Below are positions 560 to 5,737 of a stretch of DNA of 64,000 nucleotides, one piece after another. The notes under the pieces are model-generated. The model worked only from the letters and a program-made list of their open reading frames with translations, had not been told where the DNA came from and did not search any database. Location of the stretch: assembly GCA_964651475.1 (NCBI GenBank), contig CAZYXV010000018.1, positions 11,474 through 75,473 on the forward strand. The letters run 5' to 3'. This DNA is from an uncultured Anaerolineae bacterium. Lineage in GTDB: Bacteria; Chloroflexota; Anaerolineae; Fen-1058. Each line of letters starts with the position of its first letter. Position 1 is the first letter of the stretch. Made by a program: the position numbers and the translations under genes.

Positions 560-1720
560 TCATCGTTGCCGCGCGGGTGAGACCTGCAATTCCACCAGGT
601 TCATCCCCTCCATCGCCTGAATAATGTGCGCCGTCGTCAGCGGATCAAAGGTCTTGTCGGCAGAAGAGAAATAGTACCCACCCGTGCGGCGATCCCACAA
701 CATCATCAAAGCGCCGGGCGTATCTACCAGCCCCGGTGTCCAATCCGATAGCGTTTCGCGCAGAGCGTAAAGCGCCTGGAGCGCTCGCGCCGTCGGGCTG
801 CCAGTGGTGACAATGGTTCGGGTTTCCTGGTCAGGAAAGCCGCCATACTTGTTCTGCGCCCGGCGCAGATAGGGCAGCGCCGCGCGCGCGCTGTCAATTT
901 CGCCTGCCGCCGCCAACGCCTGCACAACCAGGGCAGTGGTATACACGTCTGCCCCGCCCGACGCCAGGCTGCCATCTCGCGCCCAGGCGTCATTGCCATT
1001 TTTCTTGGCCGCAAGCAATTCCACCGCGCTGGTGGGGATCGGTTCCGCCGCGCTGTGGAGGGCCAGCATCGCGTAAGCGTGAACGTCCAGGGCCGCGCCG
1101 AACTGGCCGCTCTGGCGGTTTTGCCGGGCCTCGAGCGCGGTCACCAGGTTTCGACCGGCAAAAGCGCGCGGGTTTTGCCCGGAGGCGACGGCCGCCATGA
1201 TGACGCAGCTCAACCGTTCAGCATCCGCAACGCGCCCGGCCCGCACCTGCGCCGCCAGGTAATCTAACGGTGATTGCCTGGCCTTGTTCACCCACAACGC
1301 CGGATCCGCGCCGCCGGCCACAGCCGCCAAAATCACCTCGGCGGTCAGGCATACTTCGCTCACACGAGCAGACGGAGAGCGCCTGTCATCCTTGTTGCGA
1401 ACGTCAAGCCGCCTGCTCGTAATACTGCCGGCCAGAAAGCGTTCGTACAAGCGCGCGGTAGCCAATGCATCCGTCGGCCACATCCAATGACCTGAATCGG
1501 GCAGCCTGGGCACGTCAACGTGCGGAATGTCCATAGGGGGCAGATTGGGGTTTGCAATGGGAGGCATATCGGGATTGCTGGGAGTGGGGTCAGGGCGCTT
1601 CACGGGCGAAATGGGCGATACAAACATTCCGTTACCTGATGGCGCCGCGTACAACTGCATCGCCAACACATTGCCTATCACAAGAACCAAAACAAACAAG
1701 GGTAAAGCCTTGGCCTTCAT
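560..1720 (-). CDS. Secreted prenyltransferase/squalene-oxidase-repeat (alpha/alpha toroid) protein
   Basis: RBS CAGGAGG before MKAKALPLFVLVLVIGNVLAMQLYAA (signal peptide); Pro-rich linker; QW-like repeats QNRQSGQF, AQNKYGGF, WDRRTGGY; ADVYTTALVVQAL. Confidence 0.65.
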   Translation of the reverse strand: MKAKALPLFVLVLVIGNVLAMQLYAAPSGNGMFVSPISPVKRPDPTPSNPDMPPIANPNLPPMDIPHVDVPRLPDSGHWMWPTDALATARLYERFLAGSITSRRLDVRNKDDRRSPSARVSEVCLTAEVILAAVAGGADPALWVNKARQSPLDYLAAQVRAGRVADAERLSCVIMAAVASGQNPRAFAGRNLVTALEARQNRQSGQFGAALDVHAYAMLALHSAAEPIPTSAVELLAAKKNGNDAWARDGSLASGGADVYTTALVVQALAAAGEIDSARAALPYLRRAQNKYGGFPDQETRTIVTTGSPTARALQALYALRETLSDWTPGLVDTPGALMMLWDRRTGGYYFSSADKTFDPLTTAHIIQAMEGMNLVELQVSPARQR

Positions 1721-2064
1721 GGTTTCCTCCTGTAACATACCTGGCTCATCCAATGCTCAAAGGCTGACTTGAGCACTATGCAGCGCTTTTAGCAAAACGC
1801 GGCGCGCCTTGCCGCTTGCTCATATTTTATCATACTCCTGCGCGCCACACAATACCCAAAACTCTAGCAGCCTGCCGGCGTCCCTATGCCAGCCCCACTC
1901 AACGCGCCCGCTCTTGCAGATACGCGTTGATACGTCGCCAGATGCAACAGCGCCCGGCACAAGTTGTATCGGGCGCTGCTGTGAATGAGGGACAATATTG
2001 GGGTGAGAGAGCAATTGAACTATCAAGTTGCAGCCATGCTTCCCACACTCAGATTGCTTGATGG

Positions 2065-2277
2065 TCATGCATGTGTGGGCTTGCGCGTTGGAAAACTTTG
2101 CACAGGACTCCAAAACTTGTACCGGATCACCAGGTGTGCCATGTTGTCAATCTGGGTGTCCGATATATCCGCACCTTCCTGGAGTTCATGCAAGACCTCG
2201 TCACGCATGTCCCTCAAGACCTGGAACGTCAGCTCGTCGAGTGGAGCTGTCGTCTGTGTCGGCCGAGGGTTGCCCAT
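2065..2277 (-). CDS. Small hypothetical protein (70 aa) under riboswitch-like control
   Basis: Strong RBS GGGAGGTGAG before ATG (MGNPRPTQTTAPLDELTFQVLRDMRDEVLHELQEG...); lies directly downstream of a promoter, aptamer and terminator. Confidence 0.6.
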   Translation of the reverse strand: MGNPRPTQTTAPLDELTFQVLRDMRDEVLHELQEGADISDTQIDNMAHLVIRYKFWSPVQSFPTRKPTHA

Positions 2278-2326
2278 ATCTCTCACCTCCCTTCTTTGAA
2301 AATGAGAATTGACCTCGCCGTAGAGC

Positions 2327-2361
2327 AAAAAAGCTTCTACCCCTAACCTCAGGTAGAAGCT
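2327..2361 (-). terminator. Intrinsic terminator (riboswitch expression platform)
   Basis: Perfect 10-bp stem AGCTTCTACC / GGTAGAAGCT followed by a T tract; its 5' arm is the 3' strand of the aptamer. Confidence 0.85.
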
Positions 2362-2431
2362 ATCAGTCATCGGGATGGCGTTGGCGGGCACGGCGTGCCT
2401 GATGCCCGCTCACTGGCGAGCCTCACCACCT
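2353..2431 (-). ncRNA. Fluoride riboswitch (crcB motif)-like aptamer
   Basis: Minus strand AGGTGGTGAGGCTCGCCA...AACGCCATCCCGATGACTGATAGCTTCTAC. P1 is GGUG/CGCC; pseudoknot GAGGCU/AGCUUC; AAC-GC..AC-UGAU core; terminal CUAC; extra hairpin GCGGGCA/TGCCCGC in J1/2. Confidence 0.75.
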
Positions 2432-2437
2432 ACATAG

Positions 2438-2467
2438 ATTATAAACCCATTCTAGCTTGCAAGTCAA
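2438..2467 (-). promoter_or_regulatory. Sigma70 promoter of the riboswitch leader
   Basis: TTGACT-N18-TATAAT, ending about 7 nt before the aptamer's first nucleotides. Confidence 0.75.
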
Positions 2468-2497: not shown

Positions 2498-5400
2498 CTA
2501 GTCGTGTGCGGGCGGCGGCGCAACGGCCCGCCTTCTTTCTGGAAAGCGCCGCAGCACAATCGCCTCGACGTGCAGCAGCACGCGATCCCCCATGCTCAAT
2601 TCGGGCTTGGGCTTTTCGGCCTGCGGCTTTTCAGGCAGCACGAAAATGCCGATGGGCGTTCCTTCTTTGTTGTATTTCATATCCACAATCGCCAACCCAA
2701 GCAGGTATCCTTCGGAATCTATCGAGCAGCTGGTCACATTGCCGATCACCTGGCCTTGCTTGTTAACCACAGGCGCGCCTGTGTTGGGGCGGCGGACGCC
2801 TTTTTGGTTCATGCGCCAGCGGACCACTTCCCGCTTGCGGTTCAGGTCGCGCGCCAGCAGCACATCGCGCCCGACGAAGAAGGGCTTGTGATACTTGACG
2901 TAACCCGGAAAGCCGGCCTCGGCCGGACTGATGTCGAACGGGCCGACCAATTCGTGCCCATACAGCGGCAAGCCGGCCTCGGTGCGCGTGCTGTCGCGCG
3001 CGGCCAATCCGCACGGCTTGAGTCCAAAGGGTTTGCCCTTTTCCAGCAGCATGGTCCAAAAAGCCACTTGCTGGTCAGGATGGACGAACAACTCGAATCC
3101 CACATCCTCGCCAGTGTAGCCGGTACGCGCGGCGATGACGGGGATATTGCCCAGCACCACCTCAATCAAGTCGGTGCGGCGCACGCGCGCCAATGCAAAG
3201 CGAGTAGCCGCGTCGTCCGTGCAGGCTTGCAAGATAGCAATCGAGGCCGGGCCTTGCAGCGCCACATCGCGCAACTGCCGCGAACCTTCTGCGGGGTTCT
3301 TGAGATTGCGCAAGACAGCCGGCGCTTCTACCCTGAGCCAGGGACGTTGGCGGTCAATGCTCACGCGCCCTTCGTTGACAGCGTTCAGCCAATCCCAGTC
3401 TTTATCTTCGTTGGAAGCGTTGACGACCACCAGGAAAAGATCCGCGCGGCGGCGGTAAATCATCAAGTCGTCAATCGGCTTGCCGTCGGGATCGAGCAGG
3501 TAAGCATAAGCCGACTGCCCATCGTCTAGCCAGTGAGCATAGTTGGAAATCACCGTATCGAGGAAAGTAATGGCGTTCGGGCCGGCGACCTCGAAGCAGC
3601 CCATGTGGCTCACGTCGAACAACCCCGCCGCCTGCCGCACGGCCGCGTGTTCCTCGCTCACACTGGTGTACCACACGGGCATCTCCCAGCCGGCAAAGGG
3701 AATGACCTTGCCGCCCAGTTGCTTGTGAATCTCGAACAGCGCCGTGCGTTTGAGCGGCGCATCGCCTGGCTCGGCCCAACTCCACTCCGGTAAAGTGACA
3801 GGTGGAAGGCCTAAAGTAGAAAGCGACAAGTGAGCCTGCCCAACGAAATAGGGCTTGGTCAGATCAAAACGGTCGGGATATTTGCGCAGCAGGTCGTTCC
3901 CGTCAGCGCCCGGCTCTGCGGCGTCGTCTAGCTTGATGTTGGATATTGGATGTTCGGTATTTTCATCAATCGTCACCGGGCCTTGAACTTTGCGGAACAC
4001 ATCCGCGTCGTCGAACAACACGTAACCATCCGCCAGGCCGCGCAGCCAGGCTTGCACCCGTTCGGCGGGCGCGCTCCCGACGTGCAACACGTAACGGTCG
4101 CGCTTGTGCTCGTCCGGCTCGATCCGCGCAAGCGCCACATCGGCCATCAACTTGCCCGCGCGGTCCAGCAAAAAGGTGCGGGTGGTTTGGCCCGCTTCGA
4201 GGCCGGCCAGGTTGCTCGTGCAGATTTCTTGCACGAATGGCCGCGCCCGCCAGCCCCTGATTTCTAACGTGACGAGTGACGAGTGACGAGTGACGAGTGA
4301 CGCTTCACGGTCAAAGTCAATGCCGGCCTTGTCCGCCAATGCAGCAACGTGCTTCTTGGCAGCTTCCAGAACGTCCACGTCAATCTTGCCGCGCGGCAAC
4401 TCGCCGGCCAGGCCCTGGTAGGCAAAAGGCTGAATGCCGGTGAGCACGTGATGAACCACGTCGGCAATCGCGCCCATATCCTCCGCCGCCAGGCCGCGTT
4501 GGCTGACCCACGGCGTGCCAAAGCGGATGCCGCTGGCCAGCGCCGTCTTGGTATCGCCCGGAATGGTATTTTTGTTGACCACGATGCCGGCCAGGTCGAG
4601 GAGGCGCGCCGCCATCTCGCCGCGCAACGGAAAGCCCGCGCGGCTCTTGACGGCGCTCACGTTCACCAGCACAATGTGCGTATCGGTGCCGCCGTAGACC
4701 AGCTTGAGCCCGCGCGCCTGGAACGCATCGGCCAGCGCCCTGGCGTTTTCCACCGTGCGCACCTGCAACTGCTTGAACTGCTCCGCCCGGGCCAACTTGC
4801 ACGCCACGGCGATGGCGGCGAATTTGTTGACGTGCGGCCCGCCCTGCGCGCCGGGGAACACCGCCATGTCAATCAGACTGGCCTTGTCTTCGTCGGTGGT
4901 GAGAATCACCGCGCCGCGCGGCCCGCCCAGGGTCTTGTGCGTGGTGAACACCACCACGTCGGCAATGCCAATCGGGGTGGGGTACACACCGCCAATGACC
5001 AATCCGGCAGTGTGGGCAATGTCGGCCATCAGCAGCGCGCCGGCGGCGTCGGCAATCTGGCGAAAGCGCGCCCAATCCGGCGCCCACGAGTACGACGTGT
5101 AGCCGGCGACGATGACGCGCGGGCGATATTTGAGCGCCAGTTCCATGATCTGGTCGTAATCCAGTTTTTCCGTCTTGGGGTCAACGCCGTAAGAAACAAC
5201 TTTGTAACGCTTGCCGGAGATGTTGAACTCGCTGCCGTGCGTCAGGTGGCCGCCCTGGAACAGGTCCAGCCCCATCAACGTATCGCCAGCCTGCATGAAC
5301 GTATCGTAAACCGCCAGATTGGCCGCCGACCCGGAAAGCGCCTGCACGTTGGCGCGAATCGCTTCGGCGGGGACAGACGGAGTGGCAAAACACTCGGCCA

Positions 5401-5737
5401 CGCGCCGGCCAGCCAATGCCTCGACAATATCCACGTAATCCACGCCCTTGTAAAAGCGGCGGTCGGAATAGCGGCGATAGTAGGCCAGTTGGTGCGCGTC
5501 GTCCGAAAGCAGCGCCTCGGATTCGCGCGTGGCGCGCAATGGCGGGTAGCCTTCGGCGTATACGTTTTGAAACACCGAACCGAGCGCCTGCCGCACGGCC
5601 AGCGGCGCGTAACTTTCGGAGGGAATCATGATGAGCTTGCGCGCCTGGCGATCAGCCTCGCCTTCGATCAAATGGGCGACGTAAGGATCAAGCTCCTCGA
5701 TATCGCCGCGGAAAAGAAAATCATCGTATTCGGACAT
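2498..5737 (-). CDS. glyA: Fusion: serine hydroxymethyltransferase + partial GcvT-like domain + complete glycine-cleavage aminomethyltransferase T
   Basis: SHMT motifs YAEGYP, GGHLTHG, TTHKTLGGPRG (PLP Lys), GAQGGP, VNKNTIPGD, SGIRFGT. Then LEIRG...FLLDRAGKLMADV (GcvT-N-like). Then KRTALF..H..LGGKVIPFAGWEMPVWY, GLFDVSHMG, ARTGYTGEDVGFE, GLAARDSTRTEAGLPLYGHE. Confidence 0.92.
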   Translation of the reverse strand: MSEYDDFLFRGDIEELDPYVAHLIEGEADRQARKLIMIPSESYAPLAVRQALGSVFQNVYAEGYPPLRATRESEALLSDDAHQLAYYRRYSDRRFYKGVDYVDIVEALAGRRVAECFATPSVPAEAIRANVQALSGSAANLAVYDTFMQAGDTLMGLDLFQGGHLTHGSEFNISGKRYKVVSYGVDPKTEKLDYDQIMELALKYRPRVIVAGYTSYSWAPDWARFRQIADAAGALLMADIAHTAGLVIGGVYPTPIGIADVVVFTTHKTLGGPRGAVILTTDEDKASLIDMAVFPGAQGGPHVNKFAAIAVACKLARAEQFKQLQVRTVENARALADAFQARGLKLVYGGTDTHIVLVNVSAVKSRAGFPLRGEMAARLLDLAGIVVNKNTIPGDTKTALASGIRFGTPWVSQRGLAAEDMGAIADVVHHVLTGIQPFAYQGLAGELPRGKIDVDVLEAAKKHVAALADKAGIDFDREASLVTRHSSLVTLEIRGWRARPFVQEICTSNLAGLEAGQTTRTFLLDRAGKLMADVALARIEPDEHKRDRYVLHVGSAPAERVQAWLRGLADGYVLFDDADVFRKVQGPVTIDENTEHPISNIKLDDAAEPGADGNDLLRKYPDRFDLTKPYFVGQAHLSLSTLGLPPVTLPEWSWAEPGDAPLKRTALFEIHKQLGGKVIPFAGWEMPVWYTSVSEEHAAVRQAAGLFDVSHMGCFEVAGPNAITFLDTVISNYAHWLDDGQSAYAYLLDPDGKPIDDLMIYRRRADLFLVVVNASNEDKDWDWLNAVNEGRVSIDRQRPWLRVEAPAVLRNLKNPAEGSRQLRDVALQGPASIAILQACTDDAATRFALARVRRTDLIEVVLGNIPVIAARTGYTGEDVGFELFVHPDQQVAFWTMLLEKGKPFGLKPCGLAARDSTRTEAGLPLYGHELVGPFDISPAEAGFPGYVKYHKPFFVGRDVLLARDLNRKREVVRWRMNQKGVRRPNTGAPVVNKQGQVIGNVTSCSIDSEGYLLGLAIVDMKYNKEGTPIGIFVLPEKPQAEKPKPELSMGDRVLLHVEAIVLRRFPERRRAVAPPPAHD
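3935..3962. repeat. Degenerate heptamer tandem repeat in the second linker of the SHMT-GcvT fusion
   Basis: GATGTTG GATATTG GATGTTC GGTATTT (encodes NTEHPISNI). Confidence 0.5.
4269..4302. repeat. Perfect heptamer tandem repeat (GTGACGA) x4.9 within the fusion linker
   Basis: GTGACGA repeated; encodes SLVTRHSSLVT at the SHMT/GcvT-like junction. Confidence 0.9.

Follow-up and report, generated by a model that had tools for sequence, protein, structure and literature searches.

Fluoride riboswitches are the main guide to cellular anti-fluoride genes, and several of the genes that they control are still unexplained. The locus described here raises the question of what such a switch governs, and whether it still answers to fluoride, when it carries a substitution in its core and precedes a gene of no recognisable kind. 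It lies in a stretch of 64,000 nucleotides (nt) from an uncultured Anaerolineae bacterium (Chloroflexota, Fen-1058; GenBank assembly GCA_964651475.1, contig CAZYXV010000018.1, positions 11,474 to 75,473), hereafter the window, where an initial annotation had placed a variant fluoride riboswitch ahead of a 70-amino-acid (aa) protein and had offered two readings, namely a new fluoride-response protein or an aptamer of altered specificity. We consider it probable that the element represents the Chloroflexota form of the crcB class, that it relieves termination in response to fluoride and thereby drives a new small protein of the fluoride regulon, and that two atypical changes may retune or weaken the window copy. 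The argument draws on the anatomy of the unit, its homology to the fluoride family, covariation among relatives, conservation of the open reading frame (ORF) and genomic association; from these we infer fluoride binding by the window copy, read-through of the terminator and the role of the protein.

Anatomy of the switch

The unit formed by the switch and the small gene occupies window positions 2467-2065 of the minus strand, where every element listed in the initial annotation was located: a consensus-like promoter, an aptamer at the predicted +1, an overlapping terminator, a strong ribosome-binding site and a small ORF.

2438 to 2467, minus strand: sigma-70-type promoter (TTGACT 2467-2462, 18-nt spacer, TATAAT 2443-2438)
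2351 to 2432, minus strand: fluoride-riboswitch-like aptamer, a crcB-motif homologue by its score with the Rfam model RF01734, a model built without the window, and covariation in 62 relatives
2430-2427 with 2418-2415, minus strand: helix P1 (GGUG/CGCC, one U.G pair)
2426, minus strand: G at the conserved A of GAUG, equivalent to A6 in Thermotoga petrophila numbering, whose partner U38 is U2365
2424-2419 (GAGGCU) with 2361-2356 (AGCUUC), minus strand: pseudoknot, 6 base pairs (bp), one G.U
2384 to 2414, minus strand: expansion segment in the P1-P2 junction (J1/2), 31 nt, hairpin of G2409-U2402 with G2391-C2384 and a 10-nt loop
2379-2375 (GCCAU) with 2370-2366 (AUGAC), minus strand: helix P2, four of five pairs, C2378.A2367 mismatched
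2365-2362, minus strand: UGAU segment, assigned by sequence
2326 to 2361, minus strand: intrinsic terminator (5' arm 2361-2351, loop 2350-2343, 3' arm 2342-2332)
2284 to 2291, minus strand: Shine-Dalgarno sequence GGGAGGUG, 6 nt ahead of the ATG
2065 to 2277, minus strand: small ORF (ATG at 2277, TGA at 2067-2065), 70 aa (MGNPRPTQ...THA)

The promoter matches the consensus at 11 of 12 positions, has no equal between positions 1500 and 2800, and begins 31 nt past the stop codon of a gene for a 1079-aa fusion of serine hydroxymethyltransferase (SHMT) and GcvT. Transcription is predicted to start near A2431. P1 begins 7-8 nt past the -10 box and closes an 8-nt loop, GUGAGGCU, which pairs with the 3' tail in a pseudoknot whose helix is 97.8% paired in the family. 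Among the core nucleotides A6, U7, G8, U38, G39, A40, U41 and U48 only A6 deviates, being replaced by G2426, whereas U2425, G2424, U2365, G2364, A2363, U2362 and U2355 are kept. The A40-U48 pair is the linchpin of the fluoride aptamer (PMC8752731), and its equivalents, A2363 and U2355, are intact. The helices of the initial annotation are thus present, although it overlooked the C.A mismatch in P2.

The terminator comprises 11 pairs (-17.5 kcal/mol, z = -3.85) and a run of six T at 2332-2327, the first of them inside the stem, followed by G2326. Its 5' arm, AGCUUCUACCU (2361-2351), contains both the 3' strand of the pseudoknot and the linchpin U2355, which is the overlap of aptamer and expression platform found in ON switches. 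The terminator is conserved in 15 aligned leaders, where its pairs covary with the pseudoknot strand, and the ribosome-binding motif GGAGGUG is kept in all 15.

This layout suggests a sequence of events in which transcription would begin near 2431 and P1, the J1/2 hairpin and P2 would fold in turn. With fluoride and Mg2+ bound, GAGGCU of the P1 loop would pair with AGCUUC (2361-2356) and the A2363-U2355 linchpin would lock the pseudoknot, which would then occupy the 5' arm of the terminator; as that arm would be unavailable, RNA polymerase would continue into the ORF. In the absence of fluoride, the 11-bp terminator (2361-2332) and its T run would end the transcript. The output of the switch would be the monocistronic 70-aa gene, and its product a small acidic two-helix protein belonging to the fluoride regulon of the lineage.

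Homology and covariation

Relatives were gathered by more than one route. Five contigs encode homologues of the ORF (50-56% identity), and four of the five carry a sub-threshold match to the Rfam Fluoride model directly upstream, with a similar J1/2 insert. Two genomes in GTDB encode the protein, a Thermoflexales and an Anaerolineae metagenome-assembled genome, each with three fluoride-type aptamers at the locus. A metagenome scan with an aptamer-3'/terminator pattern added 32 further loci, and a covariance model built from the gathered loci yielded 69 aptamers, 62 of them distinct, on metagenome contigs of Anaerolineae/Thermoflexales type. As the loci were mostly fetched with a 3' pattern derived from the window, the invariance of the 3' strand among them arises by construction. 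Six loci (L042, L044, L046, L047, L049 and L051) were fetched independently by the protein, and they agree with the picture given by the loci retrieved with the pattern.

Over the 62 distinct sequences the paired share of alignment cells is 89.6%, and it drops to 30-50% once the partners are slid; each helix carries compensatory changes: P1 alternates between GC (34) and AU (10), pair 11-127 of the pseudoknot between AU (33), GC (13) and GU (12), and P2 between UA (30) and CG (27). A second lineage model, from which the window was left out, gave 57.7 bits (E 1.2e-15) for the window element, which was the sole significant match in the 64 kb. Judged by sequence and covariation, the window element shares ancestry with the fluoride (crcB-motif) riboswitch, and the initial proposal of a crcB-like switch in which the terminator overlaps the aptamer in an ON layout is borne out by anatomy, homology and covariation alike.

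The hairpin in J1/2 had been listed as one of two deviations of the window copy. It is present there, with 8 bp in place of the 7 first described (seven Watson-Crick and one G.U; -16.7 kcal/mol), and the window accordingly lacks the short unstructured J1/2 linker; it is, however, no peculiarity of this copy. Across the 62 relatives J1/2 ranges from 6 to 66 nt, and falls into canonical linkers of 6-7 nt (five cases), unstructured linkers of 13-16 nt, and hairpins of about 14-60 nt, the last in most relatives, mostly on a conserved GGUGRG/CYCACC base and in some cases branched. A CAAC linker separates the window hairpin from P2 and keeps the conserved CAA, and the stem itself is shifted in register, to GCGGGCA/UGCCCGC. 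From this alignment, the J1/2 hairpin is recognisable as an expansion segment of variable size, present across the lineage, whose insertion separates P1 from the conserved AA linker.

The small protein and its genomic company

The ORF is a real coding gene, as the differences among 11 close homologues fall predominantly at third codon positions (851, vs 384 and 217 at the others). Gene callers overextend it upstream through the riboswitch, to 108 aa (from GTG 2391) or 100 aa. We rejected the 108-aa start, which crosses the aptamer and the terminator, whereas conservation begins at MG(R/N)P with its own Shine-Dalgarno sequence. Also rejected was an 82-aa ORF after the small ORF (2068-1820, ATGA overlap), where only palindromic hairpin DNA is conserved and both strands match.

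The core of the 70-aa protein has an isoelectric point of 4.4, and AlphaFold2 predicts a plain two-helix hairpin (residues 15-33 and 40-56; mean predicted local distance difference test score 77). The family motif is DE.T.Q.WEDMR.E[VI][LW]HELQEG..DVPD.L[VI]D, with M24, E27, H30 and G35 invariant. A profile search of 5.8 billion proteins returned at least 128 matching clusters, none of whose members has a Pfam domain or a name beyond 'hypothetical', the one exception being a protease-like label from JGI (P0058). When 1.84 billion representatives were searched exhaustively with HMMER, only 43 clusters at 50% identity were returned. Tests of the protein against described families gave no Pfam family, no NCBIfam family and no PDB sequence profile at E up to 10, and a Foldseek comparison of the AlphaFold2 model with the PDB gave no meaningful match (best E 9.5). 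The earlier statement that the regulated gene is no recognisable fluoride target holds. In the open-access literature subset that was searched, no report was found on the 70-aa family or on fluoride aptamers with an expanded J1/2, and both the family and the lineage-wide expansion appear to be undescribed there.

Association with the aptamer is one clue to function. In the sample, 22 of the 62 distinct aptamers stand 65-74 nt upstream of the small ORF, about 19 of these 22 with the canonical GAUG, which makes the 70-aa family the commonest target; at the protein-retrieved loci, an aptamer precedes the ORF in five of six (L042, L046, L047, L049 and L051). The aptamer of L051 (1580-1635) is canonical, has no J1/2 hairpin and stands about 230 nt, not about 70 nt, upstream of its ORF (1863-2072), whose subfamily is the closest to the window protein by C-terminal motif (VVRYDF / VIRYKF).

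The surrounding genes point the same way. The neighbours include CrcB with DUF190/CBS, and His_Phos_1, at L042; enolase, His_Phos_1, PHO4, two MutS_V genes and a pyrophosphatase at L044; two MutS_V genes and enolase at L046; and enolase at L006. Enolase and crcB/eriC are recorded among the genes controlled by fluoride riboswitches, and mutS was one of the earliest to be located behind the motif (PMC8752731, PMC7266159, PMC2864571). The association with fluoride-toxicity genes is accordingly found at the loci of homologues, not in the window itself. Strong comparative support from aptamers, protein-retrieved loci and neighbours thus upholds the first of the two initial readings, and the 70-aa protein is probably a new fluoride-response protein.

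Other targets of the aptamer in the lineage are His_Phos_1 (phosphoglycerate-mutase-like; L007:6491-7117), Cys-rich DUF6062 proteins (L025:2003-2677(-), L021:345-1160, L053:1174-3339), a family of about 150 aa (L006:6654-7121, L007:7102-7554, L046:577-1044), P-type-ATPase-like proteins, enolase, MutS_V and Lgt. The family of about 150 aa has no Pfam or NCBIfam match, and three of its members share 41-48% identity.

As to what the protein might do, it is no more than a guess that it binds metal or protects a fluoride-sensitive Mg2+-dependent (glycolytic) enzyme, prompted by an E-x-x-H-E face that does not vary and by the repeated presence of enolase and His_Phos_1 among the neighbours.

Does the window copy still sense fluoride?

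Several observations weigh against the proposal that the window copy is a working fluoride switch. With the Rfam Fluoride model RF01734, whose gathering score is 34, its element reaches 16.2 bits; the E value is 0.087 on 701 nt and would rise to about 8 over 64 kb. A scan of the whole window at the gathering threshold returned only a tRNA and no Fluoride match. The pattern behind most of the retrieved loci came from the window itself, namely from the 3' part of its aptamer and its terminator. In the window the J1/2 hairpin has an outer stem remodelled from the ancestral one, and P2 carries C2378.A2367 at the position where the family alternates between the U-A and C-G pairs counted above. The G at the A6 position is found in none of the 61 other distinct relatives, the A being invariant wherever the residue is present. 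With tblastn, the 64-kb window yielded no CrcB, DUF190/CBS, enolase, His_Phos_1, MutS_V, pyrophosphatase, PHO4, DUF6062, Lgt or member of the 150-aa family; the unit stands alone in the source organism, without fluoride-defence genes in the window. A search for RNA sequencing runs that hold the locus found none.

The low Rfam score stems mainly from the 29-nt insertion, and the pseudoknot lies outside what the model scores. Where the insert is shorter, relatives attain 33-35 bits, and those that share P1, pseudoknot and 3' sequences with the window range from 16 to 35 bits (L006:2662 at 34.8, above gathering; L007:8088 at 33.6; L046:481 at 32.8). The Infernal check that had been proposed thus gave no significant score with the Rfam crcB model, an outcome that the initial annotation had named as refuting evidence; the element is real nonetheless, and the lineage model built without the window recognised it at the E value given above.

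That GGUG replaces GAUG was confirmed (G2426), and the change is limited to the window and one soil relative of about 95% identity. Five phosphates, that of A6 among them, hold three Mg2+ around the fluoride, and the base of A6 joins U38 in a reverse Watson-Crick pair that is absent unless fluoride is bound (bioRxiv 10.1101/2022.05.19.492696; PMC10687018); the counterpart in Bacillus cereus is numbered A10-U38 (PMC10687018). It is because the replaced A serves this fluoride-dependent pair and the Mg2+ cluster that G2426 counts against fluoride sensing. G2426 is not a read error or a one-off: the window sequence is identical in contigs of at least two other runs, and all sampled words occur in four runs (X1-X4).

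A descendant of the fluoride riboswitch might have lost ligand binding through the A6-to-G change and the P2 mismatch, which would leave the terminator as a constitutive attenuator and the small gene expressed only through leaky read-through or from the upstream SHMT-GcvT transcript. We regard such disablement as unlikely, although several lines of evidence lend it substance. G2426 is unique among the 62 aptamers and falls in a ligand-dependent tertiary pair (PMC10687018), P2 has its C.A mismatch, no fluoride regulon lies near the window unit, and the lineage models give the window 57.7-66 bits vs 70-82 for other small-ORF aptamers. At L003 (1382-1447), L030 and L034, moreover, unrelated sequence stands in place of P1 and the 5' strand of the pseudoknot, which form the aptamer's 5' half, yet these loci retain the 3' strand and the terminator, and their small ORF is intact; with that half lost, the terminator there should be constitutive unless otherwise opened. 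Deviant cores also occur in distant small-ORF aptamers (L046:5862-5928, L047:5954-6020 and L049:5861-5927), which have GACG or GACC for GAUG and UCGAC, UUGAA or UUUAA in place of CUGAU. Constraint on the aptamer ahead of this family may be relaxed or different at these three loci.

The manner in which the window copy has changed argues the other way. Its pseudoknot, linchpin, UGAU, terminator, promoter and ORF are all intact, and of the four changes that touch paired or core positions, two still allow a pair (C-to-U in P1, giving U.G, and A-to-G in the pseudoknot, giving G.U). The soil contig of about 95% identity (run X6) retains the G, and yet its P1 reads GGCG, the canonical form, and every pair of its P2 forms, with A2367-to-G giving C-G at the position of the window's mismatch; this pattern is not expected from free decay. 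A contig about 86% alike (X7) has the ancestral GGCGAUGAAGCU, that is, A at the position. Identity to relatives is 78-93% in the aptamer core, 62-69% in the coding sequence and 65-74% in the insert, and the core is thus better conserved than the gene that it precedes. The pattern of substitution and conservation fits continued constraint better than free decay, although present fluoride sensing by the window copy is not thereby proven, and the A6-to-G change and the P2 mismatch may lower or retune its fluoride response.

The second of the initial readings was that the aptamer senses something else. Variant riboswitch classes have previously been recognised by a near-invariant core change coupled to an unusual gene context, and a G6 variant, alone or with the expansion hairpin, could in the same way answer another ligand, the small protein serving that signal; the core change in its unusual context and the lack of known fluoride genes around the window copy accord with this. 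We nevertheless hold it very improbable, and the evidence gathered does not sustain the claim. In about 19 of 22 cases the aptamer ahead of the same protein family has the canonical GAUG, and the family is encoded among crcB, enolase and pyrophosphatase genes; the hairpin also occurs in aptamers ahead of the typical fluoride-associated genes of the lineage; and the A-to-G variant is confined to two near-identical sequences, the immediate clade of the window. Further, fluoride is held by backbone phosphates through Mg2+ and not by base contacts (bioRxiv 10.1101/2022.05.19.492696), which makes a single base change an unlikely route to a new ligand.

Chance resemblance of an ordinary promoter, terminator and small ORF without riboswitch ancestry could appeal to the sub-threshold Rfam match, and is refuted by the E value of the model built without the window, by relatives graded up to the Rfam gathering score, by covariation that includes the pseudoknot unscored by that model, and by the synteny of aptamer and ORF in many loci.

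Aptamers upstream of lgt (prolipoprotein diacylglyceryl transferase, TIGR00544) diverge more than that of the window (L010:1012-1110, L031:333-432(-), L019:136-201, L029:518-584(-), L038:2602-2667(-), L027:702-784). Either their P1 loop contains a hairpin of about 27 nt that separates the A of GAUG from the U/C, or, in an alternative reading of the model, the A has been deleted; they are better candidates for changed function than the window copy.

With the fluoride-activated switch as the preferred explanation, a bolder proposal may be added tentatively, as possible rather than probable: that the family of about 70 aa is a dedicated fluoride-stress effector, neither exporter nor replacement enzyme, which buffers metal or metal-fluoride or shields enzymes of the enolase and phosphoglycerate-mutase type, and that the G6 aptamer is in addition a naturally retuned fluoride sensor in which the A6-U38 pair is dispensable or replaceable.

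Other features of the locus

Three further features lie on the same strand, downstream of the switch.

2313 to 2326, minus strand: post-terminator mini-hairpin of small-ORF leaders (family consensus GCYC-UCAGGC-GRGC, conserved loop)
1945 to 1981, minus strand: strong 3' hairpin (core GCCCGAU...CGGGC), about 85 nt past the stop codon, no U tract
1799 to 1815, minus strand: second terminator-like site, GCGGCAAGGCGCGCCGC then GUUUUG, ahead of the next gene

The mini-hairpin forms three of its four pairs in the window (C2325-G2314, U2324-A2315 and C2323-G2316), and pair 45-54 of the 15-leader alignment is U-A in eight leaders and C-G in six. Two other pairings were rejected: a long-range pairing of the post-terminator GGCGAG with the 3' strand of P1, where covariation favours the local mini-hairpin, and a helix that would sequester the Shine-Dalgarno sequence, which is predicted for the window alone and is not conserved in the same alignment.

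The 3' hairpin (-26.9 kcal/mol, z -5.9) occurs once in the window, and its motif follows the small ORF at 11 or more other loci, among them (as GCCCGAU...AUCGGGC) L001:1139-1161, L002:2169-2191, L005:738-764, L006:6244-6270, L007:6283-6305, L012:4403-4425, L013:3971-3993 and L015:7251-7273. It is probably the 3' end or a stabiliser of the monocistronic transcript; alternatively it may be a protein-binding site. Whether the terminator-like site at 1799-1815 is linked to the riboswitch unit is uncertain. Directly 3' of the small-ORF unit at two loci (L001:1237-1408 and L002:2267-2437) stands an M-box (Mg2+) riboswitch, with 139-142 bits, over which a gene caller has placed a minus-strand ORF.

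The unit is flanked by the SHMT-GcvT fusion gene on one side and a gene for a 397-aa secreted protein on the other. The former (2498-5737, minus strand) joins a serine hydroxymethyltransferase (PF00464) to a GcvT-type aminomethyltransferase (PF01571), and a second such fusion, of 1051 aa, lies just past the start of the window in the same organism (L041). The 397-aa protein, encoded by the next gene downstream (560-1753, minus strand), has a signal-peptide-like N-terminus and a weak, sub-threshold similarity to the A-macroglobulin TED domain.

Significance

The switch is a variant of the known fluoride class, and the protein family is probably a new member of the fluoride regulon. More broadly, the fluoride aptamers of this Chloroflexota lineage are mostly missed by the curated Rfam model, owing to the J1/2 expansion hairpin. 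As a result, both the number of riboswitches and the extent of the regulons are underestimated for these bacteria, which abound in sediments and digesters. The overextension of the ORF through the riboswitch, to 108 or 100 aa, hides both features in public annotation. The 70-aa family, His_Phos_1, DUF6062 and the family of about 150 aa are concrete candidates for new fluoride-tolerance functions, and the natural A6-to-G variant offers a ready test of the contribution of the fluoride-dependent A6-U38 pair to sensing.

Comparison with known systems

The closest described systems are the fluoride riboswitches of RF01734, such as the Bacillus cereus crcB ON switch and the Thermotoga petrophila aptamer (PDB 4ENC). 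The window element shares with them a P1 with an 8-nt loop, a 6-bp pseudoknot between loop and 3' tail, a short P2, UGAU, the A40-U48 linchpin nucleotides, and an intrinsic terminator whose 5' arm is the 3' strand of the pseudoknot, such that ligand should switch expression on. It differs from them in a J1/2 of 31 nt with an 8-bp hairpin vs about 6 nt in the Rfam consensus, in G for the conserved A of GAUG, in the C.A mismatch of P2 and the G.U pairs of P1 and the pseudoknot, and in regulating an unannotated 70-aa protein, not a Fluc or CLC-F exporter.

Nearer still are the 62 distinct aptamers of the lineage (for example L004:278-359, L007:5846-5927 and L006:2669-2736). Common to these and the window are the P1/pseudoknot sequence GGCGAUGARGCUCGCC, the 3' strand CUGAYAGCUUCUACC, the terminator, a J1/2 hairpin based on GGUGAG/CUCACC, the same small ORF 65-74 nt downstream, the post-terminator mini-hairpin and the 3' hairpin. 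By contrast, GGUGGUGAGGCU is found only in the window and its X6 relative, and the window has its J1/2 hairpin in a shifted register, a mismatched P2, and none of the usual His_Phos_1, enolase and DUF6062 neighbours.

For the protein, the nearest parallel is with uncharacterised proteins that have a known tie to crcB or to fluoride riboswitches, such as DUF190 beside crcB. The two groups have no relationship in sequence or fold, and the window family is much smaller (about 70 aa, two helices); they are nonetheless alike in that the function of each is hinted at only by the control of a fluoride riboswitch and by the fluoride-defence genes among which it is encoded.

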